A DNA stretch of 64,000 nt from Spirochaetia bacterium (GCA_965198005.1 CBDAOI010000002.1:851417-915416); one strand, 5' to 3'; positions 51,884 to 62,258 are shown, counted from the first letter of the stretch. A program made the numbers and translations. Notes: generated from the sequence alone by a model not told the origin.

Positions 51884-53845
51884 ATGAGACTCACCAAAGT
51901 AAGAATCAGGGACTTTCAGAGTATACGGGACTCGAGGGAAGTCGAGATTGGCGATGTCACTTGCCTGGTTGGAAAGAACGAATCAGGAAAGACTGCCGTT
52001 CTCCAGGCTCTATACCGCTTGAATCCCATCAACGAGGCGGGCGGCTCTTTTGACGTCACCGACGACTACCCACGTAGATCGGTGGTTAACTACAAGAGCG
52101 ATGTGGCGTCTGGACGCCGAGAGCCAGCAGAGGTAATTCAAGCCACCTATGCACTCGAATCTGACGACACCAAGGCCGTCGAGGAGCTCTTCGGGTCTGC
52201 ATGTCTCAAAGACAAGAACCCTGCCGTTTCACTCCACAAGGGATACTCAAATGAAGTCGAGGTCAGCGATCTGAATGTCGACGACAACGCAGCACTAATG
52301 CATTTGGTCGAGACCGGTGATCTTTCTCAACAGCTCACGGCACAGCTACTCCAGCAGAAGACTACCCAAGCAATGACAGAGGCGCTTGCTAACGCCGAGC
52401 AGACGGAAGCTGTGCAGAAGCTCGTGCCGACACTTCAGGAGATTCCGGAGGGAGATGTTTCTGCATTCATCTACGACCGTATTCTCCATGATCGCATTCC
52501 GAGATTCCTTTACTTCGACGAATATTACCAGATGAAGGGGCAGGATAACCTCGACGCGCTTCGCCAACGGGTGGAAAGAAGAGCGCTAGAGAACCCAGAC
52601 TACCCACTCCTGGGATTGATTGACCTAGCTGGATTGGACCTCAACCAGATTGTTGATCCGGAGCGGACAGAGGCGTTACTGGCTAATCTCGAAGCTGCCG
52701 AAAACCAACTCACACAGACAGTACTTGCCTATTGGTCTCAGAACCTGCACCTGCGGATGAGATTCGACATTCGTGCAGCGCGACCCGGAGATCCACCCGG
52801 GATGACCGCAGGCATGAACATCTGGGGACGAATACACGATACCAAGCACATGGTAAGCACGGCACTTGGTACCCGCTCCCGTGGATTCGTCTGGTTCTTC
52901 TCCTTCCTCGCCTGGTATTCACAGCTTCGCAAGGAGGGCAAGAAGCTGATCCTACTCTTGGACGAACCGGGCCTCTCTCTCCATGGAAAGGCACAGGGCG
53001 ATCTACTTCGCTATTTCGAGGAGCAACTAAGGCCAACTCATCAACTTATCTACACGACCCATTCATCGTCCATGGTTGACCCCCAGCATTTCGAACGAGT
53101 CCGCATTGTCCAAGACCTGAGCGTCGAACCAGACTCTGAAAAGCTGTCTGAGGAGCAACAGGGGACGCAGGTTATCACCGAGGTTCTCGATGCCACACCC
53201 GATAGTCTGTTTCCGCTCCAAGGTGCTCTCGGCCACGAGATTTATCAAACGCTCTTCATCGGTCCGAATAGCTTGGTCGTGGAAGGGGCGTCGGACCTAC
53301 TGTACATCCAAACCATCTCCGCCCTCCTTGAGAAGAAGGGCATGGTCGGCCTGAGTACTGATTGGACTATTACCCCGGTTGGTGGCTCTGAGAAAGTCCC
53401 AACCTTCGTTGCTCTGATTGGCGCGCAGAAGCACATGAACGTCGCAGTGCTCATTGATTTTAAAAAGAAGGATCGGCAGAATATTGAGAACCTCTACAAG
53501 CGGAAGCTCCTCAAGAAGCGCAAAGTTCTTGCCTATGTGGACTACGTCGGCAGCAGCGAAGCCGATATCGAGGATATGTTTAGCCCCGACTTCTATCTGA
53601 AGTTGGTGAACGGTGCGTTCGAGTCCTCTGTTTCGTTCACCGATTTGTCCGGAGGGCATCCGCGGATTCTTCGCCGACTCGGGGAATATCTGGACCAGAA
53701 TCCACTCCCGAATCGTGCGATCTTTAATCACTATCGACCGGCCCGGTACTTCAGCGACAACATAGCTGCACTATCTGATGGTTTGCCAGACCAGGTTCTG
53801 GACCGTTTCGAACGGGCCTTCAAGGCACTCAATGAGCTGTTGTAG
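51884..53845 (+). CDS. Second OLD-like ABC ATPase with a Toprim-like C terminus
   Basis: GKNESGKT, LLDEPGLSLH, YTTHS and VVEGASD; visibly lower GC. Confidence 0.85.
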   Translation: MRLTKVRIRDFQSIRDSREVEIGDVTCLVGKNESGKTAVLQALYRLNPINEAGGSFDVTDDYPRRSVVNYKSDVASGRREPAEVIQATYALESDDTKAVEELFGSACLKDKNPAVSLHKGYSNEVEVSDLNVDDNAALMHLVETGDLSQQLTAQLLQQKTTQAMTEALANAEQTEAVQKLVPTLQEIPEGDVSAFIYDRILHDRIPRFLYFDEYYQMKGQDNLDALRQRVERRALENPDYPLLGLIDLAGLDLNQIVDPERTEALLANLEAAENQLTQTVLAYWSQNLHLRMRFDIRAARPGDPPGMTAGMNIWGRIHDTKHMVSTALGTRSRGFVWFFSFLAWYSQLRKEGKKLILLLDEPGLSLHGKAQGDLLRYFEEQLRPTHQLIYTTHSSSMVDPQHFERVRIVQDLSVEPDSEKLSEEQQGTQVITEVLDATPDSLFPLQGALGHEIYQTLFIGPNSLVVEGASDLLYIQTISALLEKKGMVGLSTDWTITPVGGSEKVPTFVALIGAQKHMNVAVLIDFKKKDRQNIENLYKRKLLKKRKVLAYVDYVGSSEADIEDMFSPDFYLKLVNGAFESSVSFTDLSGGHPRILRRLGEYLDQNPLPNRAIFNHYRPARYFSDNIAALSDGLPDQVLDRFERAFKALNELL

Positions 53846-54133: not shown

Positions 54134-54830
54134 GTAACTACTTAGGAGGACCTCTGACAGGAGTTTCAGGATGAACGGGATTGGTGCGCAGGCGGTTCGG
54201 TATTCTACCTGTCTGCCCGCGCTCACAATTGTGCATCCAGGCGAACTGGTCTGACTGGGTACTGTCAGGGGAGTGGTCGGTTCAGGAAGTGTCGATGGTG
54301 GGTACGAACGGCGTATCGGTGGAAGGCGCGGGCCAAGGCGTCGATGGCGCCGACCGCGTTCTTGCGGGCGGTCGAGATGTAGGAGCGGATCCGGCAGAAG
54401 GCGTTGGCGCCTTCGTCGGTGCGGAACGTGCCGGAAATTTTCTGCTGCACCTTCATCATGCGAATGTCGCCTTCAGCCAGATTATTAGTGAATGGGACGG
54501 CGCAGTCGTACATGAAAGCCAGGGCTTCCTGGCGGTGCTGGTCGAGCCGTTCGAGCAGGTTTCTGGGCTTGGTCTTTTTTCTTCTCCCGCGCTTCTTGGT
54601 TGCGCCTGCAGGTAGCGGTGGCAATGGGTTCTGAGCATACCCTTGATCGAGTATCTGTTGATAACGGGCTTCAAATGCCTCGATTTGCGCAGCAGAGAGA
54701 CAGTCGGTGGTTGGTGCGGTCCGCTCGATCGTGTCCTTGATATCCAGCAGGCAGTCGATCATGTCAGCGGCCCACGGCTGGTCGTATTGCTCGTGCACAA
54801 AGGTCAACTCGCGCAGATGGTGAGCGTTGA
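54134..54830 (-). mobile_element. IS66-family remnant (3' part of the transposase and one end)
   Basis: NAHHLREL, VPFTNNLAEGDIRMMKVQQKISG and FCRIRSYIST; end-like GTAACTACTTAG at 54134. Confidence 0.85.
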
Positions 54831-54854
54831 TATGTTCACTGCAACATATCAACG

Positions 54855-55214
54855 CGTACGAGCGGCGGCAGCGGCGGCGGCGCGGCGGCCATCATCGCCA
54901 CGGGTGGTTCACCACTCGACATCGGCAGCGATACCGGCGGTAGCATCCGGGTGCCCGCGCACTGCTGCGGGATCACCGGGCTGCGACCGACCTCCGGCCG
55001 CGTTCCCCGTACCGGCCACATCGTGCCCTACGGGCTCGGCTCGTTGGATTCGCTCACCACGCTGGGACCGATGGCGCGCCGGGTAGAGGACCTGGCGCTT
55101 ACGCTACCGGTCATCAGCGGCGTGGACTGGCGCGATCCAACCGTGGTCCCGTTGCCGCTGGGGGACCCCAAGGGGGTCGACTCTGCAGGATTGCGCGTTG
55201 CGTTCTTCATCGAT
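54855..55214 (+). pseudogene. Amidase signature fragment, interrupted by the RIT element
   Basis: RTSGGSGGG, DIGSDTGGSIRVPAHCCG and GPMARRVEDL...GLRVAFFID. Confidence 0.85.
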
Positions 55215-55301
55215 TATCCCGAAAAAAATGAAATGCCGAAGTTTGATGGTAACTTGTTTCCACACAAACAGATAGCGTTGCAAACTTCGGCATAATATTG
55301 G
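55212..55301 (+). repeat. RIT left inverted repeat (90 bp)
   Basis: 85/90 identical by manual alignment to the reverse complement of 58593-58682. Confidence 0.95.
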
Positions 55302-55371
55302 CCGATGGGCAAGGCCCCTTCTATGATGAGAGCGCCAGACATCCATCTGGACATCATCAGGGAGGTGCACA

Positions 55372-56607
55372 ATGCACGACAACCTATTGTTGGACGATCT
55401 TGTCGAGAGCGTTCTTCAGGAGATCGGAAAGTTCGGCCTTGACCCGATAACGATCAACCACTATCGACAAACATATAGGCGGCTCAAGCAGTACGCAGCC
55501 GCGCGCAACGTCGAACGTTTCTGCGACAGTCTGATCCAAAGTTTCCTGCATGACCTAGAGGAACAGCACAAGGCGGGCGCAATCGGACGTGGCAGACGAA
55601 ACCATCTCAGACGAGCATCGTTGATACTGCAAGAATACGTCGCCAACGGAGCAATCAGGTGGACCACGTACACATTCGACTGCCAGCCGATGCCCAAGTC
55701 GAGAGAATTGCTGCTCCTGCATGAGAGGTTCATGGACGAGCTTGCAGCCACAAACAAAAGCGCGAATACGATACAATCATGTGCCAGCGCAGTCCGCCAA
55801 TTCCTGTTGTTCCTGGAGGACCACGACTGCACTTCGCTGGCGCTCGCCAGCGCCGCTATGGTACCGGCTTTCTTCCAGCATCTGCTCGCCACATACCGGC
55901 CCACCAGTATTCGTACCGTTGCCTCGAACATCCGCTCGTTTCTCAGATTCGCAGAAACCGAAGAACGGCTGCTATTGGCAGTCCCTTCACGCTGTGTCAG
56001 AAACAGGCCAATCATACCGATCCTTTTGGACCACGAAAACGATGCACTGGAAAAGGTGCTGCAGAACGGCCAACTCCGGCTTCGGGATAAGGCCATCATC
56101 CTGTTGGCCTTGCGAACCGGATTGCGTTCCGTAGACATCCTGAGGATCAAACTCACAGATATCGACTGGATCAATGACACCATCGCAATCGCCCAGTCAA
56201 AGACCGGAATCGCCTTCAAGATCCCGCTGATCGCGGATGTTGGCAATGCGCTCTCCGCTTACCTGCTCAATGAGCGTCCAACAACGGCTACTTCATATGT
56301 ATTCCTTCGTTGTCTAGCCCCATTCACCGTTCTGTCAGGCCATGCGGCCTGTTATGCAGTGCTTCGGCGAGCCTTCCTCCAAGCCGGGATAAGGGTTGGT
56401 AGCGAACGCAAAGGGCTCCATGTGCTGCGTCACTCTGCGGCCTCCAGGATGCTCTCCAAGGGGGTCCCGGTCACTACCATTTCGACCATGCTTGGACACG
56501 CCCACAAAGAGTCGACCGACGTCTACTTGGCGACCGACCAACAGCGCATGAGGGAGTGTGCGTTGGACCTCGCCAAGATTCCCGTGAACTGCGCAGGCCT
56601 GTCATGA
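55372..56607 (+). CDS. Tyrosine recombinase (RitA-like)
   Basis: TGLRS, HVLRH, LGH and TDVY; GGGAGG RBS. Confidence 0.92.
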   Translation: MHDNLLLDDLVESVLQEIGKFGLDPITINHYRQTYRRLKQYAAARNVERFCDSLIQSFLHDLEEQHKAGAIGRGRRNHLRRASLILQEYVANGAIRWTTYTFDCQPMPKSRELLLLHERFMDELAATNKSANTIQSCASAVRQFLLFLEDHDCTSLALASAAMVPAFFQHLLATYRPTSIRTVASNIRSFLRFAETEERLLLAVPSRCVRNRPIIPILLDHENDALEKVLQNGQLRLRDKAIILLALRTGLRSVDILRIKLTDIDWINDTIAIAQSKTGIAFKIPLIADVGNALSAYLLNERPTTATSYVFLRCLAPFTVLSGHAACYAVLRRAFLQAGIRVGSERKGLHVLRHSAASRMLSKGVPVTTISTMLGHAHKESTDVYLATDQQRMRECALDLAKIPVNCAGLS

Positions 56608-57572
56608 ATACTGCATACTCAAGCCTGTTTGCACCCTTTATCTCGGGACTGGTCGCGACCAAGCGCGCCGTTGGCTACTCCTATGAGAGCGCTGAGTTCT
56701 ATCTCCATGATTTCGACAGATACGCAGCCCGGCATCCCGCATTCCAATCCCTCGGCAGAGAGTTGGTCCACGGTTGGGCGAAAGCCAAGGACGGAGAAAA
56801 TCTGGCAGGGCATCGTATCCGGATATCGCCGATCCGTGAACTTGGCAAGTATATGCAGTCGATCGGCGTTGCAGATGCCTTCGTGCTTCCCTCAGCCGGC
56901 ATCCGTGCCGCCGCTAGGTACGTGCCTCATTTCTTTACTCACCAGGAGATTACGGCATTCTTCGGCGCCTGCGACAAGCTCCAGTCCCATGGGACGGCGC
57001 AGGCGCGACATCTGGTCCTCCCGGTATTCTTCCGCCTCCTGTATTGCTGTGGTCTGAGGACCGGTGAGGCAAGAACGCTGCGCGTTGAGCAGGTTGATCT
57101 GGAAGCCAGCCACATCGACATCATGCGTTCGAAGGGTTGCAGAAGTCGCAGACTTCCGGTGCCGGCCGACGTTCTGGGTCTGCTCCGTCGATATGCCGCA
57201 CGAGTGTCCGTGATATATCCCGGGAGAATCTACTTTTTCCCGACAACGAGATCGGATTGCTACAGCGGCGGCAGCGTAGCAGCAGTATTCAACCGCATCT
57301 GGAAGGCGGCGGGCCTGGGAGCGGGATGCGGCAACCGACCGCTTGCGTATGACTTCAGGCACCACTTTGCGCTCAGCAATCTGAACCGGTGGATCGCGAC
57401 CGGTGTTGAGGTCAACGCCATGCTCCCCTATCTCAGCAGGTACATGGGACACGCCAGCCTGGCAAGTACCGATTACTACCTTCACCTGGTTCCCGAGTTC
57501 TTCCCTACATTCGCGGCCAAGGTGCGCGCCACTGAGGCCATTCTTCCGGAGGTGGACCATGACCAGGGATAG
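56604..57572 (+). CDS. Tyrosine recombinase (RitB-like)
   Basis: CGLRTGE, YDFRHH, LSRYMGH and TDYY; ATGA overlap. Confidence 0.92.
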   Translation: MNTAYSSLFAPFISGLVATKRAVGYSYESAEFYLHDFDRYAARHPAFQSLGRELVHGWAKAKDGENLAGHRIRISPIRELGKYMQSIGVADAFVLPSAGIRAAARYVPHFFTHQEITAFFGACDKLQSHGTAQARHLVLPVFFRLLYCCGLRTGEARTLRVEQVDLEASHIDIMRSKGCRSRRLPVPADVLGLLRRYAARVSVIYPGRIYFFPTTRSDCYSGGSVAAVFNRIWKAAGLGAGCGNRPLAYDFRHHFALSNLNRWIATGVEVNAMLPYLSRYMGHASLASTDYYLHLVPEFFPTFAAKVRATEAILPEVDHDQG

Positions 57573-58587
57573 CACATCGGGACAACAATTCTGGAAGTGT
57601 GTACGTGAGTACCTCACGGTGCACCTGCCGAAAATACGCTGTTTCAGTGCGCACACCGTTGACTCCTACAGACGATCGATAGGCATGTACTGCGACTTCC
57701 TCGAAGCACAACATCGGATCAAGTTCGCGAATGTATCATGGGATCACTTCACGCGAGACTCGGTGATCAAGTACATTCAGTGGCTGCGCCAGAGGCCGTG
57801 CGGAGTCGCAACCTGCAATCTCAGACTATCCGCTCTCAAGGCATTCCTCAGATACTGTGCGGATGAAGACGTCAGCCTCTATAGTGTGTTCCAGGAGGTG
57901 AAAAAGATTCCATTACTGAAGATGGCCAGGACGCCGGTCGGTTACCTGTCGCAGACGGCCCTGAGGACGGTGCTCGCTCAACCTGATAAGACAACCGTAA
58001 AGGGGAGACGGAACAGGATGATCATGATTCTGCTATACGACACAGGAGCCAGGGTTCAAGAGCTGGTCGACTTGCGCGTCACCGACTTCCATCTGGAGGC
58101 AAGAACTCCATTCGTACTGGTGACCGGCAAAGGCAACAAAACCAGAAGTGTTCCTCTCATGGACAAGACCGTTGCCCATCTGAAGGAATATCTACGGCAA
58201 TTCCATGCTGGCCCCGCCGACCGTCACGAAGTGCCGCTGTTCTATTCCCTGCACGCGGGTAGGCCGCACATGCTATCCACCGATGCGATCAGCGTATTGG
58301 TCAAGAACTACGGCGAAGGTGCGCGCACGACATGTGCTGAGGTGCCGCCGAGAGTGCACCCTCATCTGTTTCGACATAGCCGTGCGATGCATCTCTATCA
58401 GTCCGGGATGCCGCTTCCTTATATTGCGGAATTCCTGGGACATGCAAGCGTGACTACCACTGAAATCTATGCTTCCGCGGATACCGAGATGCTGCGCAAA
58501 GCCATCGAGCGAGCAGATCCCGGGCTGGCGGACGAAACGCCCGCCTGGAAGGATGAGGAGAGTCTGAGGCGGCTGTGCGGCCTCTAA
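57559..58587 (+). CDS. Tyrosine recombinase (RitC-like)
   Basis: YDTGARVQE, GKGNK, HPHLFRH, LGH and TEIY; GGAGG RBS. Confidence 0.92.
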   Translation: MTRDSTSGQQFWKCVREYLTVHLPKIRCFSAHTVDSYRRSIGMYCDFLEAQHRIKFANVSWDHFTRDSVIKYIQWLRQRPCGVATCNLRLSALKAFLRYCADEDVSLYSVFQEVKKIPLLKMARTPVGYLSQTALRTVLAQPDKTTVKGRRNRMIMILLYDTGARVQELVDLRVTDFHLEARTPFVLVTGKGNKTRSVPLMDKTVAHLKEYLRQFHAGPADRHEVPLFYSLHAGRPHMLSTDAISVLVKNYGEGARTTCAEVPPRVHPHLFRHSRAMHLYQSGMPLPYIAEFLGHASVTTTEIYASADTEMLRKAIERADPGLADETPAWKDEESLRRLCGL

Positions 58588-58592
58588 GAGCC

Positions 58593-58682
58593 CCAATGTT
58601 ATGCCGAAGTTTGCAACGCTATCTGTTTGTGTGGAAACAAGTTACCGACAAACTTCGGCATTTGTTTTTTTTCGGGATAATC
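58593..58682 (-). repeat. RIT right inverted repeat (90 bp)
   Basis: Reverse complement of 55212-55301. Confidence 0.95.
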
Positions 58683-58687
58683 AAGGA

Positions 58688-59807
58688 TCTGGGGTATCCA
58701 TTTAACCGGACTAATGCTGTAGACTGTCGCCATGGAATACCCGCGCGGCGGCGCGCACTACCCGAGGTCGGTCGGAGAGTTCCAGGCTTGGTTCCAGAAC
58801 GATGAGGACTGCTTGGACTACTTGGAGTGGCTGCGATGGCCGGCCGGCTTCGTGTGCTCGGCTTGTGGTCATCATGGGGAGTGGCGGCTGGGGGACGGTA
58901 GGCTCAGGTGCTCCGGGTGCGGCGGCCGCACTTCGGCGACCGCCGGCACGATTTTCGACCGGACACGAACGCCGCTGACGGTGTGGTTCACTGCCTGCTG
59001 GCTGTTCGCCACCGGTAAAGATGGGATTTCGGCGCTGAGCCTGAAGCGGACGCTGGAGATCGGCTCCTACCAGACGGCATGGACTATGCTGCATCGTCTG
59101 CGCGCGGTACTGGTACGTCCGGGGCGGGATCGGCTGCGCGGGCTGGTGGAGGTAGATGAGACTTACATCGGCGGTGAGGAGCCGGGGCTGCGCGGCGGCC
59201 GGGCCGCGGGCAAGAAGGTACTGACCGGCGTAGCGGTCGAAGTCCGGGAGCCGAAAGGGATGGGGCGGTGTCGGATCGCACCGGTCCCGGATGCATCGGG
59301 GGCCTCGTTGCACCGGTTCGTGACGGATCACGTCGAACCGGGTGCGACGGTCATCACCGACGGCTGGCAGGGCTATAGCGGACTGGAGCAGCTCGGCTAT
59401 GCCCACGACCGGCGCAGCCAGCGGGCGGCTCGATTACGCGGAGAGGAGCCCGGCAAGCTGCTTCCCGCCGTGCACCAAGTTGCCTCGCTGGCCAAGCGGT
59501 GGCTGCTCGGCACCCATCAAGGCTCGGCGGAACACACGCACTTGGCCAGCTACCTCAATGAATTCGTGTTCCGCTTCAACCGTCGCCGTTCCCGGAGTCG
59601 CGGGATGGTATTCTTTCGGGTGCTAGAGCTCGCCGTCACGCACGCCCCAGTGCGCTACCAGGATCTCATCGCCAGCCATCGACCTCGGAAAGTTCCGCCA
59701 ACACCGCCGCGGGGGCGCGGGCATCCGCCGAGCTTAGCGCGGCCTCCAGCGAACCGCCCGTGGAGAACAGCGAATCCAGCTAAGTCCGGTTAAATGGATA
59801 CCCCAGA
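58688..59807 (+). mobile_element. IS1595-family insertion sequence
   Basis: Perfect 25-bp IRs TCTGGGGTATCCATTTAACCGGACT; 8-bp target duplication ATCAAGGA at 58680-58687 and 59808-59815. Confidence 0.95.
58732..59793 (+). CDS. IS1595-family transposase
   Basis: Zn ribbon CSAC/CSGC, TAGTIF, VEVDETYIGG, TDG and YLNEFVFRFNRR. Confidence 0.95.
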   Translation: MEYPRGGAHYPRSVGEFQAWFQNDEDCLDYLEWLRWPAGFVCSACGHHGEWRLGDGRLRCSGCGGRTSATAGTIFDRTRTPLTVWFTACWLFATGKDGISALSLKRTLEIGSYQTAWTMLHRLRAVLVRPGRDRLRGLVEVDETYIGGEEPGLRGGRAAGKKVLTGVAVEVREPKGMGRCRIAPVPDASGASLHRFVTDHVEPGATVITDGWQGYSGLEQLGYAHDRRSQRAARLRGEEPGKLLPAVHQVASLAKRWLLGTHQGSAEHTHLASYLNEFVFRFNRRRSRSRGMVFFRVLELAVTHAPVRYQDLIASHRPRKVPPTPPRGRGHPPSLARPPANRPWRTANPAKSG

Positions 59808-59841
59808 ATCAAGGAAATGCCGAATTCGGCATTTCCTTGAT
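59808..59841. repeat. Perfect 34-bp palindrome
   Basis: ATCAAGGAAATGCCGAA|TTCGGCATTTCCTTGAT. Confidence 0.97.
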
Positions 59842-59900
59842 AACGGCATCGTCACTCCGACCGCGGAGACGGCGGCTGCGTAGCGTGCGCTGGAGCGGCC
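59839..59900 (+). pseudogene. Continuation of the interrupted amidase
   Basis: DNGIVTPTAETAAA*RALE continues GLRVAFFID in frame. Confidence 0.7.
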
Positions 59901-60023
59901 GCCAACCCCAATCTGGCCCCGGAAAACTCCAAAATCGCCGAACCAAGCCCGCCTCAGCCGCGCCACGATGATTGATGGGATAAACGCGATTCTGGGTCGA
60001 GCTGATTGAGGGAAGGGAAAAGA

Positions 60024-60097
60024 ACCCCCTCACGGAGCTTGACCAACAAGCCCGTGAGGGGGTGGTCTCCTTGTAATCCAACAGCAAGGAGACCACC
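60024..60097 (+). promoter_or_regulatory. Two tandem hairpins, the second covering the RBS
   Basis: ACCCCCTCACGG/CCGTGAGGGGGT and GGTGGTCTCCTTG/CAAGGAGACCACC; GTG start at 60099. Confidence 0.75.
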
Positions 60098-60098
60098 A

Positions 60099-60686
60099 GT
60101 GTTACAGAAACTGCTGGGAGATACCAGCTTCCATCATCTACTTCTGAAAATCGACGAGGACGTGGCGAAAGGGGTGCGGAGCAAGGGCTGTCCGCACTGC
60201 GCGGGCGTACTGCACTCGGCGCGCTATGAGCGCAAGCCGCGCGGCGGGCCGAGCGAACTACCGCCGAACTATGAGCGGCGGGCGAGTTTCTGTTGCGCGG
60301 CGGCGGGGTGCCGCAAGCGGGTGACGCCGCCGGCGCTGCGGTTCTGGGGCCGGCGGGTGTATCTGGGGCCGGTGTTTGTGCTGGTGTTCAGCATGCAGAG
60401 CGGGATCACGCACAAGCGAACAGAAGAGTTGCGCAAGCAGTTGCGAGCGCCGACGTTGAGCCGGCGTACGCTCAGGCGCTGGCGCCAGTGGTGGCTGGAG
60501 GTGTTCCCGAGGAGTTCGTTCTGGAGCACCGGGCGGGGGCGGTTTATGCCGCCGGTAGATGAGAAGTCGCTGCCTGGGTCGCTGCTGGCGCGGTTTGGTC
60601 AGACCGACGCCGCCGAGCGGGTGGTGGCAGCGTTGCGCTATCTGGCGCCGGCGACCGCCGGAGCGAGCTCGGTGATGGCCCCCTGA
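60099..60686 (+). CDS. Transposon-associated Cys-rich/HTH protein
   Basis: CPHC...FCC...C and RRTLRRWRQWW; first gene of the DDE/ExeA module. Confidence 0.75.
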   Translation: MLQKLLGDTSFHHLLLKIDEDVAKGVRSKGCPHCAGVLHSARYERKPRGGPSELPPNYERRASFCCAAAGCRKRVTPPALRFWGRRVYLGPVFVLVFSMQSGITHKRTEELRKQLRAPTLSRRTLRRWRQWWLEVFPRSSFWSTGRGRFMPPVDEKSLPGSLLARFGQTDAAERVVAALRYLAPATAGASSVMAP

Positions 60687-60770: not shown

Positions 60771-62258
60771 GTGAGCAGAGGAACGGGGGTCATGGAAGGA
60801 CCAGACAGACAACGAGAGGTCTCAGACCGCGATCAGTGGGCACGATTCCGGTTTTCGGTGATCGGCCCGCTGTTGGCCGCGCCACCGGCGTGCGGCGAAC
60901 TGCAGCACGCGCTGCAGCAGCTGGCCGCGCGGGAGTACCAACACCCGCTGAGCAAGCAACCGATCACGCTGGGAGTGTCGACAATCGAACGCTGGTACTA
61001 CCGCGCTCGGCTGGAGTGGGATCCGGTGGGGGCGTTGCGCAATCAAGTGCGCAGCGATGCGGGCGGGCATCCGAGCGTGGCGGCGGCACAGCGCGTGGCG
61101 CTCCGCCAGCAGCACCGGGAGCACCCTGGCTGGAGCTACCAGTTGCACTACGACAACCTGAAGGAGCTGGCCAAGCAGCAGGCGGAGTTGGGGCGGGTGC
61201 CATCCTACGCGGTGGTGCGGCGGTGGATGAAGACGCAAGGGTTGTACCGTCGCAAGCGCACTCGGGTACGGCACACCGCCGGCGCCCGCAGAGCCGCCTA
61301 TCGCCTGGAGCAGCGCGAGGTGCGCAGCTACGAAGCCGAGTACGTCGGCGGCTTGTTCCATGCCGACTTTCATCATGCGTCGCGGGAGGTGCTGACCCGC
61401 CAGGGACAGTGGGTCAGGCCGCAGTTGTTCGCGGTCCTGGACGACAAGTCGCGGCTGTGCTGCCACGCGCAGTGGTACCTGCAGGAGGCTGCGGAAACCT
61501 TCGCCCACGGGCTGCTGCAGGCGTTCCTCAAGCGCGGCCTGGCACGCGCCCTGATGACCGACCACGGGGGGGCCGAGACGGCTGCCGAGATCGAAGAAGG
61601 GTTGGCTGAGTTGGGCGTGCTGCACGAGTTGACGCTGCCCTATTCGCCTTATCAGAACGCCAAGCAGGAAGTGTTCTGGGTGCCGATCGAGACCCGTCTG
61701 TTGGCGATGCTGGAAGGCGTGCCGGATCTCACCTTGGAGCAACTCAACGAAGCCACCCAGGCCTGGATCGAGTTGGAGTACCACCGGCGCGTGCACTCCG
61801 AGACCGGGCAGACGCCGCTGGAAGCCTTCCTGGCGGCCCCCAACGTGCTGCGCGACTGCCCGGCGCCGCAGCAGTTGCGGCACGCCTTTCGGGTCAAGGT
61901 GGTGCGCACGCAGCGCCGCAGTGATGGCACCCTGACCCTCGACGGCGTGCGCTTCGAGCTGCCGGGCCGGCTACGTCACTTGGCGCGGGTAGCGGTGCGC
62001 TATGCCCGCTGGGATCTCAGTCAGGCCGCAGTGGTCGATGAACGCACCGGCGCCGAGGTGGCGACCATCTACCCGCAGAACAAGACCGCCAACGCCAGCG
62101 GCCAGCGGCGGCGTTTGGAGTCCGCCGGTGCCGACTCGCCGGCGGCGCCGTCTGGAGTAGCGCCACTGTTGAAGAAGATGCTTGCCGACTACGCCGCCAC
62201 CGGCCTGCCGCCGGCCTACATCCCCAAACCAGAGAACCCCAAGGAGGATCTCCGATGA
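60771..62258 (+). CDS. DDE integrase/transposase (rve core plus Mu-like C terminus)
   Basis: WARFRFSVIGPLL, FHADFHH, LDDKSR, MTDHG, PYQNAKQE and HSETGQTP. Confidence 0.9.
   Translation: MSRGTGVMEGPDRQREVSDRDQWARFRFSVIGPLLAAPPACGELQHALQQLAAREYQHPLSKQPITLGVSTIERWYYRARLEWDPVGALRNQVRSDAGGHPSVAAAQRVALRQQHREHPGWSYQLHYDNLKELAKQQAELGRVPSYAVVRRWMKTQGLYRRKRTRVRHTAGARRAAYRLEQREVRSYEAEYVGGLFHADFHHASREVLTRQGQWVRPQLFAVLDDKSRLCCHAQWYLQEAAETFAHGLLQAFLKRGLARALMTDHGGAETAAEIEEGLAELGVLHELTLPYSPYQNAKQEVFWVPIETRLLAMLEGVPDLTLEQLNEATQAWIELEYHRRVHSETGQTPLEAFLAAPNVLRDCPAPQQLRHAFRVKVVRTQRRSDGTLTLDGVRFELPGRLRHLARVAVRYARWDLSQAAVVDERTGAEVATIYPQNKTANASGQRRRLESAGADSPAAPSGVAPLLKKMLADYAATGLPPAYIPKPENPKEDLR

Follow-up and report, generated by a model that had tools for sequence, protein, structure and literature searches.

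The terminal palindrome of a RIT element in an amidase pseudogene of a Spirochaetia bacterium and its possible part in recombination

In a Spirochaetia bacterium (GCA_965198005.1, CBDAOI010000002.1:851417-915416), an amidase pseudogene is interrupted by three recombinase genes flanked by inverted repeats, with a perfect 34-bp palindrome on one side. Does this palindrome belong to the target or to the insert, and what could be its function? Elements of this kind, called RIT (recombinase in trio) and carrying ritABC, were reportedly described in C. metallidurans CH34 and on plasmid pHG1 of C. necator (Van Houdt et al. 2009, 2012; Ricker et al. 2013). According to section 11 of PMC3414803, the ends of RIT elements "do not fit well" with the usual sites, and the only features mentioned there are an inverted repeat and a palindrome overlapping it. 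In PMC10214605, their target specificity and movement are described as untested. Hereafter, the window is the whole stretch of 64,000 nucleotides that was analysed, and positions are counted from its first letter.

The interrupted amidase gene and its insert

The locus contains the following features:

54265-54852, minus strand: IS66-family transposase fragment (IS66 DDE, 2e-16), which truncates the 5' end of the amidase
54858-55214, plus strand: left fragment of the amidase pseudogene (Pfam Amidase, 8.5e-35, profile positions 126-241 of 445), ending in ...GLRVAFFID
55208-55213, plus strand: far-junction 6-bp spacer CATCGA (codons of I-D), identical in the insert-free allele
55214-55301, plus strand: left inverted repeat (IRL), from an inverted-repeat search, with motifs at positions 17 and 72, as in the right one
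55372-56607, plus strand: ritA, tyrosine recombinase of 411 aa (Pfam Phage_integrase, 1.1e-27, and SAM-like N-terminal domains)
56604-57572, plus strand: ritB, tyrosine recombinase of 322 aa (Pfam Phage_integrase, 9.3e-19)
57559-58587, plus strand: ritC, tyrosine recombinase of 342 aa (Pfam Phage_integrase, 1.8e-29)
58593-58680, plus strand: right inverted repeat (IRR), with the tip TTCGGGATAA (58671-58680) at its end
58681-58687, plus strand: internal spacer S' TCAAGG (58681-58686), followed by the initial base of half-site P, the rest of which is displaced by IS1595
58688-59807, plus strand: IS1595-family insertion sequence (Pfam DDE_Tnp_IS1595, 3.4e-30, and Zn_ribbon_IS1595), with its transposase at 58732-59793
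59808-59841, no strand: perfect 34-bp palindrome (arms of 17+17, 100%)
59839-59883, plus strand: right fragment of the amidase, starting at GAT 59839, translated as DNGIVTPTAETAAA and followed by a stop

The amidase pseudogene is split at GAT|AACGG, and homologues of its left fragment share 91-96% identity with it. From the 120 homologues listed, we located the left 12-mer and the right 10-mer, allowing up to 4 substitutions. Both flanks could be placed in 14 of them, the other 106 having no close enough left 12-mer. The gap between the flanks was 0 in 13 of these 14, the remaining one being a spurious placement. There, the right peptide directly continues the left one, e.g. as LRVAFFID|NGIVTPTAETAAAVERV in proteins of 467-469 aa. 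Moreover, Logan contigs from two runs of two studies (X9 and X11) join position 55211 to 59839, with 4,627 nt absent and three letters of the joint assignable to either side. This amidase allele is about 95% alike to that of the window and is devoid of RIT, IS and palindrome. No differing letters are listed between the two from 55175 to 55211 and, as judged from this alignment, the CATCGA of the far junction is the native sequence of the target. The interruption after LRVAFFID with resumption at GAT 59839, and the location of the palindrome inside the insert rather than in the amidase target, both put forward in an earlier note on this DNA, are thus confirmed. The amidase reading is lost again about 40 nt further along, at the onset of an 80-90-nt repeat.

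The insert is a RIT element, made up of ritABC and inverted repeats, together with the palindrome, and was later invaded by IS1595. The three genes lie on one strand and overlap (ATGA between ritA and ritB, 14 nt between ritB and ritC), ritA being the longest. Their products share 29% (RitA, first gene), 34% (RitB, middle gene) and 38% (RitC, third gene) identity with the trio of C. necator pHG1. In tblastn searches against this trio and more than 20 others, the best matches are ordered A, B, C as in the window. As to the catalytic Arg-His-Arg-Tyr residues, translations read by eye display a conserved context of the C-terminal tyrosine and an HxxR-like motif in all three proteins (YDFR in RitB). 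The adjacent and overlapping genes in A-B-C order, the flanking inverted repeats, the size of about 3.5 kb, the near-identical copies in one genome and the insertion within genes of other mobile elements are all RIT traits. We found no difference in kind, only distant proteins, and the element is a member of the RIT group.

From tip to tip, the element measures 3,465 nt, to which an appendix is added. The search for inverted repeats gave a length of 95 nt and 93% complementarity (55207-55301 and 58593-58687), the share of the element being 87 nt. IRL starts with the tip 10-mer TTATCCCGAA (55214-55223), followed after 7 bp by the subterminal 10-mer AAATGCCGAA, and contains an inner inverted 10-mer, TTCGGCATAA. 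The IS1595 copy has perfect terminal inverted repeats (24/24 nt), and the 8 bp duplicated from its target, ATCAAGGA, lie at 58680-58687 and 59808-59815. The right end of the RIT is found free of this IS in run X14 (58678 joined to 59807) and in a second copy of the same genome, both of which display the uninterrupted internal site. IS1595 is a later arrival, inside what we call below the internal core site.

The palindrome consists of the duplicated A and TCAAGG, the half-site P AAATGCCGAA (59815-59824), its complement P' TTCGGCATTT (59825-59834), the outer spacer CCTTGA (59835-59840) and a T. It can be written S'-P|P'-S, i.e. two 10-bp Rit-type half-sites between two 6-bp spacers, and its chance expectation within the window is 2e-5. 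As it adjoins the tip of one inverted repeat, a 10-6-10 core site is formed. Rejoining the two ends of the element computationally gives a sequence of 208 nt with 198 self-complementary positions, in the central 52 nt of which two 10-6-10 sites stand back to back; the single palindrome of about 210 bp predicted earlier is recovered.

Palindromes, targets and spacers in other RIT copies

Three RIT copies are present in the genome. Over 3,465 nt, identity between copy 1 (that of the window) and copy 2 is about 100%, and the proteins of copy 3 are 88-94% identical. We searched the genome for the palindrome core with up to 2 substitutions and obtained 6 matches, of which 3 are true, all of them beside the three RIT copies only. 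In copy 2, the 7-mer CCTTGAT stands beside IRL, its complement beside IRR, and it is repeated after the 20-bp P|P' core. Copy 1 carries the palindrome arms of copy 2 (CCTTGA), its far junction being the CATCGA of the amidase. Copy 3 has the layout of copy 2 with CGTCGA, its palindrome lies on the ritA side and its arms match its own target. It is inserted in a multicopy transposase gene, at least 4 intact copies of which exist in the genome with contiguous flanks and a single TCGACG. The empty sites of the amidase and of this host transposase show that the palindrome comes with the element and is no part of the target.

The usual target of the RIT family of the window is the D|NG codons of Mu-like and rve DDE transposases, where D is their second catalytic Asp, and the amidase site mimics this target. 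Each of the family's 17 D|NG insertions has its palindrome on the NG side.

The same palindrome layout was found in RIT elements of five phyla. It occurs in C. necator pHG1, R. jostii pRHL1, A. vitis pTi and Priestia megaterium, as well as in Clostridium estertheticum, Ruminococcus albus and Bacteroides ovatus. In Chloroflexota, RitB was detected in only 3 of the 400 genomes sampled. Among 28 fetched plasmid loci, the palindrome was recognised in 18; the 10 others comprise two truncated trios, two loci with inverted flanks and six unparsed or without palindrome. It lies next to ritA in about 16 cases and next to ritC in 16, so that related copies do carry it, on either side of ritABC. Where the tip and the subterminal motif of the inverted repeat differ (the family of the window, L177, L153 and L148), P resembles the latter. 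The two core-site arms are perfectly symmetric in L108, and the pHG1 trio (L153) has the layout tip-6-10|10-6 with TAGCGC at all three spacer positions. Double-palindrome forms (L099, L122, L148, L196) and palindrome-free forms with inverted flanks (L152, L182) were also found; these are the two reciprocal products that recombination between copies should yield. A solo palindrome without adjacent RIT tip was observed in the related genome G001 (L103/L143), and a model with a double core site does not explain it.

We then compared the spacers at the far junction, the internal and the outer positions in 27 complete single-palindrome insertions, a small sample of phylogenetically non-independent cases. 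All three are alike in 10 insertions; internal and outer are alike with a different far spacer in 7, including the copy of the window; far and outer are alike with a different internal spacer in 6; all three differ in 4. No complete insertion (0/27) has identical far and internal spacers with a different outer one. This contrast of 7 versus 0 argues for a carry-over of the spacer as a block, which predicts it, whereas a random segregation of heteroduplexes would not yield it. That the far junction equals the target is a rule drawn from one verified case and from the missing opposite class, since among the 7 insertions the native spacer is known only for the copy of the window. The identity of about 3 bp with the target, proposed earlier as sufficient, holds for this copy and not as a general rule, given the 10 insertions with one 6-bp spacer at all three places and the 6 more in which far and outer agree.

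A proposed double core site and the competing readings

With moderate confidence, we propose that the element excises as a circle with two back-to-back core sites, either of which would integrate by a crossover in its spacer, the spacer being carried over. The mobile unit would be IRL-ritABC-IRR plus the 32-bp appendix S'-P|P'-S. P is predicted to be a 10-bp Rit binding half-site similar to the subterminal inverted-repeat motif, each motif being presumably paired with a Rit protein, and S would be the 6-bp crossover spacer. The circle junction would then read tip'-S'-P|P'-S-tip, i.e. two complete 10-6-10 core sites. One of them would synapse with a weakly similar pseudo-site of the target, strand exchange taking place within the 6-bp spacer after a putative cleavage at its edges. 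The unused core site would stay whole beside the inverted repeat and, together with the half-site remaining at this fresh junction with the target, would give the 34-bp palindrome. With unlike spacers, the far junction would retain the 6-mer of the target and the palindrome-side junction that of the element. If excision takes the far 6-mer along, each site would be rewritten by the last target used. For the window, an element with the spacer of copy 2 (CCTTGA) may have entered the amidase at CATCGA|T-AACGG, before IS1595 split the internal core site.

As the junction is symmetric, either site would be usable, and the palindrome would come to lie beside ritA or ritC with the target side always the same. 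The use of either half also predicts the swap seen between L161 and L170, whose adjacent inverted repeats are identical at 86 of 88 positions and which have CCTTGA and CCTGGA in exchanged internal and outer positions. This swap and the presence of palindromes on both sides of ritABC speak for the symmetric double site of the earlier note, although its mobile form was not directly sighted. The same note expected integration with the palindrome on either side, which is true relative to ritABC and not relative to the target. In assembled contigs, as distinct from raw reads, we observed no circle junction, no excision product of the copy of the window and no inversion at a fixed site, so that the suggested inversion found no support there. 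Inverted-repeat tips on both sides were seen in none of the 21 parsed metagenome palindromes.

A single-strand or hairpin intermediate is a less probable, rather unlikely explanation. The element would leave as one strand or as a linear form with hairpin ends. The repeats and the palindrome would fold into a long hairpin whose stem forms a single double-stranded core site, and one strand exchange with the target would be followed by replication, as in integron attC sites or the strand-biased SE elements; in an extreme form, suggested earlier, the junction would be resolved into hairpin ends. Of the 208 nt of the hypothetical junction, 95% are indeed self-complementary, symmetric arms are found in 13 of 21 metagenome copies, and 17 of 27 complete insertions are of the all-alike or symmetric-palindrome type. 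A single exchange close to the tip with replication would leave the target spacer at the far junction and the palindrome intact, never the reverse, which also fits the 7 versus 0. In two reports, RIT DNA was enriched after exonuclease treatment with the circle left unmapped and hairpin molecules proposed (Nielsen et al. 2017, PMC5737581), and SE elements circularise one strand (PMC10214605). However, the unmapped circle is no argument for hairpins, because a read across the 208-bp palindromic junction would resemble a fold-back artefact. Moreover, 8 of 21 metagenome copies and 10 of 27 complete insertions have unlike arms, and mismatches occur in L149, L150, L178, L180 and L183, at the palindrome centre, close to it or in the arms. 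Centre mismatches count against hairpins, since their regeneration at each round would erase them. In profile searches, the Rit proteins match only the general Phage_integrase domain. No finding requires a resolution into hairpins or of the telomere-resolvase type.

It is far more doubtful that each insertion rebuilds the palindrome out of target sequence. What travels would then be just the 20-bp P|P' core or a single P, and the 6-bp arms would be copied through a staggered cut with hairpin or fill-in, leaving the target 6-mer in triplicate (two direct, one inverted). Such copying into both arms would be a more direct account of the all-alike class (10/27). Close relatives differ in both arms at once (CCTTGA, CGTCGA, CGTGGA and TGTCGA in one family; GTGTTC in L052 and L100 vs. 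ATGTTC in L110), and the spacer of copy 3 is that of its own target according to the intact gene copies. Under the circle model, this class, whose spacers vary among close relatives, requires two or more hops, or else an inversion. Nevertheless, the CCTTGA arms of the window are foreign to the CATCGA of intact amidase alleles, and the internal spacer differs in the 6 insertions in which far equals outer. In L174, only the outer arm agrees with the native target, and the spacer of the internal arm is that of a sister lineage. L077 and L080 share one internal spacer and have different outer ones.

Finally, a palindrome pre-existing in the target, or an independent small element beside which RITs land, is scarcely credible: the solo palindrome of G001 would suit it, but intact amidases and intact host genes of copy 3 have no palindrome, the three RIT copies are its sole location in this genome, and the 10-bp half-sites track the inverted-repeat motifs of each RIT family.

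Comparison with known recombination systems

Core sites such as loxP, dif and FRT consist of inverted binding arms flanking a 6-8 bp spacer. RIT sites likewise have 10-bp inverted arms around a 6-bp spacer, identical between partners in most insertions. In contrast, most RIT families have unlike arms (one tip motif and one subterminal-type motif), their two sites are back to back with no base in between, and unlike spacers can be accommodated. At palindromic sites, telomere resolvases (ResT, TelK, TelN) make covalently closed hairpin ends, and a perfect palindrome is also found at the putative joined ends of the RIT. However, the RIT exchange points suggested by spacer variation are 10-16 bp off the symmetry axis instead of across it, and some families have imperfect palindrome centres.

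Tn554, SE and GInts elements are, like RITs, transposons driven by several tyrosine recombinases and produce no ordinary target duplication. For SE and Tn554, PMC10214605 describes a 6-bp donor flank carried into one junction of the new insertion, and the CCTTGA that the window shares with copy 2 is comparable with this 6-mer. Unlike them, RITs have three catalytic-type recombinases, long inverted repeats, and a second complete core site at one end with both gene orientations relative to it. We found no TnpC/Srap-like fourth protein in the ORF list of the element, which contains only three ORFs, all Xer-like recombinases. With neither such a protein nor TnpA/TnpB recombinase types, the element shares one trait with the Tn554/SE group without being a member of it. 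For the poorly understood RIT elements, the end palindrome appears to mark the sites at which they are cut and rejoined.

Parts of the insertion and the empty amidase site

The order of the parts was established by reading the sequence from 54900 to 60200 together with the ORF list, a repeat finder and Pfam.

Table. Parts of the RIT (recombinase in trio) insertion, in window coordinates
54265-54852, minus strand: IS66 transposase fragment
54858-55214: left amidase fragment (Pfam Amidase profile positions 126-241 of 445)
After the left amidase fragment: left inverted repeat, 87 nt (repeat finder)
55372-56607: ritA, Phage_integrase match
56604-57572: ritB, Phage_integrase match
57559-58587: ritC, Phage_integrase match
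End at 58680: right inverted repeat (repeat finder)
58688-59807: IS1595-family element with perfect ends of 24 nt; 8-bp duplication ATCAAGGA
59808-59841: perfect palindrome, 17+17 (repeat finder)
3' of the palindrome: right amidase remainder, 14 more codons, then stop

In the ORF list, the neighbouring ORFs of ritA, ritB and ritC overlap. The chance expectation of such a palindrome within the window is 2e-5. The earlier note had placed this 34-bp palindrome inside the insert, and its observation is confirmed by amidase alignments and empty-allele contigs, the palindrome lying outside the target sequence. Among full-length amidases, the nearest ones (of 467-469 aa and 91-93% identical) read LRVAFFID|NGIVTPTAETAAAVERV, where the bar marks the insertion point. 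The two flanking peptides could be placed in 14 of the 120 listed homologues and abut directly, without a gap, in 13 of these 14. Moreover, contigs of two runs from two studies join 55211 to 59839, skipping 4,627 nt; three letters at the joint (GAT) are compatible with both sides, and the last 37 nt before it have no listed differences from the window. Because homologues and empty-allele contigs abut without it, the insert consists of the RIT, the IS1595 element and the palindrome, and the palindrome is not amidase sequence. A right end free of the IS is present in a third run and in copy 2, one of the two other RITs of the same genome. A palindrome belonging to the target is ruled out by the intact amidases, by intact host genes of copy 3 (the remaining RIT) and by the presence of the core only beside RIT copies.

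The amidase gene is broken at least three times, by IS66 (its 5' end, from 54858, is also cut by the IS66-family fragment), by the RIT with IS1595 and by loss of its 3' part. About 35 nt past the point where the amidase resumes starts a sequence of 80-90 nt (~59874-59961) that recurs at least seven times in the genome, with 83-93% identity; it probably forms one end of a further repeated element. Closely downstream, an ORF of 495 aa (60771-62258) contains MTDHGGAETAAE and, as read, resembles another DDE (rve-type) transposase; the window is a nest of mobile elements. Upstream of the IS66 fragment, an ORF of 653 aa (51884-53845) carries an N-terminal ATP-binding-like motif (GKNESGKT).

Layout of the ends in the three copies and in other RITs

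The genome holds three RIT copies, and the palindrome core is found nowhere else in it. With the tip (the terminal 10-mer of the inverted repeat) being TTATCCCGAA, the 10-bp half-site P being AAATGCCGAA and S a 6-bp spacer, all three copies have the layout flank-S-tip...tip'-S'-P|P'-S-flank. We call the 6-mer at the palindrome-free junction the far spacer, the one between inverted repeat and P|P' the internal spacer, and the one beyond P|P' the outer spacer. In copy 2, all three positions carry CCTTGA. In copy 3, all three carry CGTCGA and the palindrome lies beside ritA, not ritC; its host is a multicopy gene that this genome also carries intact at least four times, each time with contiguous flanks, one TCGACG and no palindrome. 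Copy 1, the window's RIT, has the CCTTGA arms of copy 2, with the amidase's own CATCGA at the far junction, so the palindrome and its arms were imported with the element from a copy-2-like donor.

The layout is shared by relatives of the source genome (L008, L009) and recurs in genome-contig pattern matches (L050, L052, L100, L106, L108, L110, L123, L134, L139 and others), in 23 metagenome contigs from a scan for tip-N6-palindrome and in 18 of 28 plasmid regions obtained via a RitB protein search. C. necator pHG1 has it with the spacer TAGCGC three times, and it is also present in R. jostii RHA1 pRHL1, an A. vitis Ti plasmid, Priestia megaterium, Clostridium estertheticum, Ruminococcus albus and Bacteroides ovatus. 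The scan of genome contigs with an 18-mer core returned at least 115 loci, mostly chance matches or terminator-like hairpins, and yields no frequency; a phylum-wide RitB search was positive in 3 of 400 other genomes. The ends or palindrome of L179, L181, L184, L201, L205 and L206 could not be parsed. The half-site P varies by family, in step with the inverted-repeat motifs, and where tip and subterminal motifs differ (the window's family, L177, L153, L148) it is of the subterminal type. At L108, the core-site arms are perfectly symmetric around 6 bp.

Tips on both sides of the palindrome were seen in none of the 21 parsed metagenome loci (among the 23 from the scan). In the assembled contigs of the sequencing runs, the go-back joint of X11 (59834, TAC, 55211; spacer TACCGA) and a loose end of X1 (spacer TGTCGA) are not circle junctions; the best reading of each is a different insertion whose palindrome adjoins the left inverted repeat. 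A solo RIT-type palindrome with arms ATCGACA/TGTCGAC occurs in L103 (4467-4486; the same locus as L143, from the related genome G001); it lies at the D|NG site of a transposase, and no RIT tip adjoins it. On its left is the sequence upstream of a lone tyrosine-recombinase gene, and 1.8 kb to its right there is a distant RIT-like trio. The solo palindrome of L049 is imperfect. RIT-type palindromes within or beside other RIT recombinase genes (L172:3880-3977 and L080) are nested RITs, which fit the description of pHG1 as a "maze" of recombinase genes.

Spacer classes and a proposed scheme for recombination

We compared the far, internal and outer 6-mers in 27 complete insertions with one palindrome. 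Double-palindrome forms (L099, L122, L148, L196), palindrome-free forms with inverted flanks (L152, L182), L169 (the same insertion as L163) and copies whose far end is off the contig were left out.

Table. Spacer classes among the 27 insertions
All alike, 10: copy 2, copy 3, L008, L052, L108, L134, L153, L177, L163, L197
Internal = outer, far different, 7: copy 1, L009, L123, L150, L158, L202, L207
Far = outer, internal different, 6: L149, L183, L170, L203, L200, L198
All different, 4: L146, L178, L180, L204 (L178 and L180 read by eye, both palindromes degenerate)
Far = internal, outer different, 0: none

Of the 21 parsed metagenome palindromes, 13 have symmetric arms and 8 have asymmetric ones. 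L161 and L170, whose adjacent inverted repeats are identical at 86 of 88 positions, have CCTTGA and CCTGGA exchanged between the internal and outer positions.

The simplest account is site-specific recombination between a circle and the target. The circle junction would hold two 10-6-10 core sites back to back, and the target would be a weak pseudo-site, with crossover within the 6-bp spacer. The 7-to-0 asymmetry suggests that, upon insertion, the element spacer moves as a block to the palindrome-side junction and the target spacer stays at the far junction. Excision would then take the far 6-mer along, each of the two sites being rewritten by the last target. Hops among identical targets would leave all spacers alike, a first hop onto a new spacer would make the far one different, the next hop the internal one, and a third spacer type would make all different. 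Block carry-over and pick-up would thus produce all the observed classes and the absence of the far = internal class. A circle with a double core site recombining with a target would likewise explain the layout, both gene orientations and the fixed polarity. From these comparisons we infer the existence of the circle, the points of cleavage, the pick-up rule and the part played by each of the three Rit proteins. In L099, L122, L148 and L196, a palindrome lies on both sides, and the flanks come from two target genes, the palindrome-side half of each, placed in inverted orientation; in L152 and L182, the palindrome is absent and both flanks are far-side halves. The two forms look like the reciprocal outcomes of an exchange between copies, by which the intervening DNA would be inverted, and the circle account would explain them in this way.

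A variant in which a folded single strand undergoes one strand exchange would yield the same products and is a less likely but credible alternative to the circle. The hairpin ends into which the earlier note had speculatively resolved the junction find no support. Its symmetric double attachment site is supported by the comparison, with two amendments: the crossover unit would be the 6-bp spacer, and target polarity is fixed. The ~3 bp of target identity that it had proposed come from a heterologous-spacer case, namely the window copy.

Passages of PMC3414803 describe RIT ends as unclear and note a palindrome overlapping an inverted repeat. Those of PMC5737581 report palindromic repeats of 47 and 51 bp and exonuclease-resistant RIT DNA with no circle mapped, and propose hairpins. 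According to PMC10214605, no RIT transposition has been reproduced, and SE and Tn554 show a 6-bp carry-over, behaving as we propose for the block carry-over of RIT spacers. RitABC is merely listed in islands in PMC10322971; PMC12306157 is not about RIT elements, "RIT" there meaning Rho-independent terminators. A full-text literature search, with the principal account of the family (Ricker et al. 2013) outside its reach, found no description of the two-core-site architecture.

Targets and meaning for the RIT family

About 16 insertions have the palindrome next to ritA and 16 have it next to ritC, which bears out the earlier note's expectation of both arrangements. The polarity of the palindrome relative to the target is constant: all 17 D|NG insertions of the window's family have it on the NG side, and all seven insertions at the other recurrent target, read as AEY|ER, which we take to be a conserved serine-recombinase motif, have it on the same side. 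Seven metagenome loci (L156, L158, L159, L164, L171, L173, L174) form a sister lineage that shares the P half-site, and their site reads ...AEY|ER... on the opposite strand.

An intact copy of the gene that hosts copy 3 matches rve (31.7 bits, just under the cut-off) and Mu-transpos_C (44.9 bits) and encodes, on these profiles, a Mu-like DDE transposase. The site in its protein is ...CYVD|NGKVY..., the Asp presumably being the second catalytic Asp of the DDE triad. The host of copy 2 (...LFFLD|KGPGF...AIERFNRT) has a weak rve_3 match only. D|NG was read in 10 of 20 metagenome flanks, and the amidase, with FFID|NGIV, presents the same DNA as the D|NG target. An actinobacterial RIT family (L146, L147, L148) sits at SD|(K/A/R)G of putative IS3-type transposases. 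By eye, from translations and record annotations, L150 and L152 lie at QGG|V in reverse-transcriptase genes of group II introns, L077, L182 and L172 in tyrosine-recombinase genes and L106 in parA. Interruption of radC and of IS66 tnpA by RITs is mentioned in passages of PMC2864759.

Taken together, RITs may carry two complete back-to-back crossover sites, either of which docks the element, hence both gene orientations; each 6-bp spacer would be overwritten by the last target used, making the palindrome a two-entry record of past sites; and whole RIT lineages would target the codons of the best-conserved catalytic motifs in competing mobile elements (in DDE transposases the second Asp, in serine recombinases AEY|ER, in the reverse transcriptases of group II introns QGG|V, and in tyrosine recombinases HxxRH). 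We hold this joint reading tentatively, as slightly more likely to fail in some part than to stand whole.

The window's RIT is a typical representative of an established family; its value is that of a clean three-copy natural experiment on an unsolved mechanism. For RITs, the 2023 comparison (PMC10214605) counts target specificity, the formation of empty sites and the way of moving among the untested points. Together, the window, its sister copies and the wider comparison give exact element ends, a candidate substrate of 52 bp with two 10-6-10 sites, and a defined natural target with tolerated spacer variants. Ends, substrate and target are starting materials for binding, cleavage and transposition assays. 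A circle junction would be a palindrome of ~208 bp, which may be why read mapping missed circle junctions. Finally, the comparison points to a RIT habit of hitting catalytic codons in the transposases and recombinases of other elements and, if the joint reading is true, RITs would be parasites that disable other mobile DNA.
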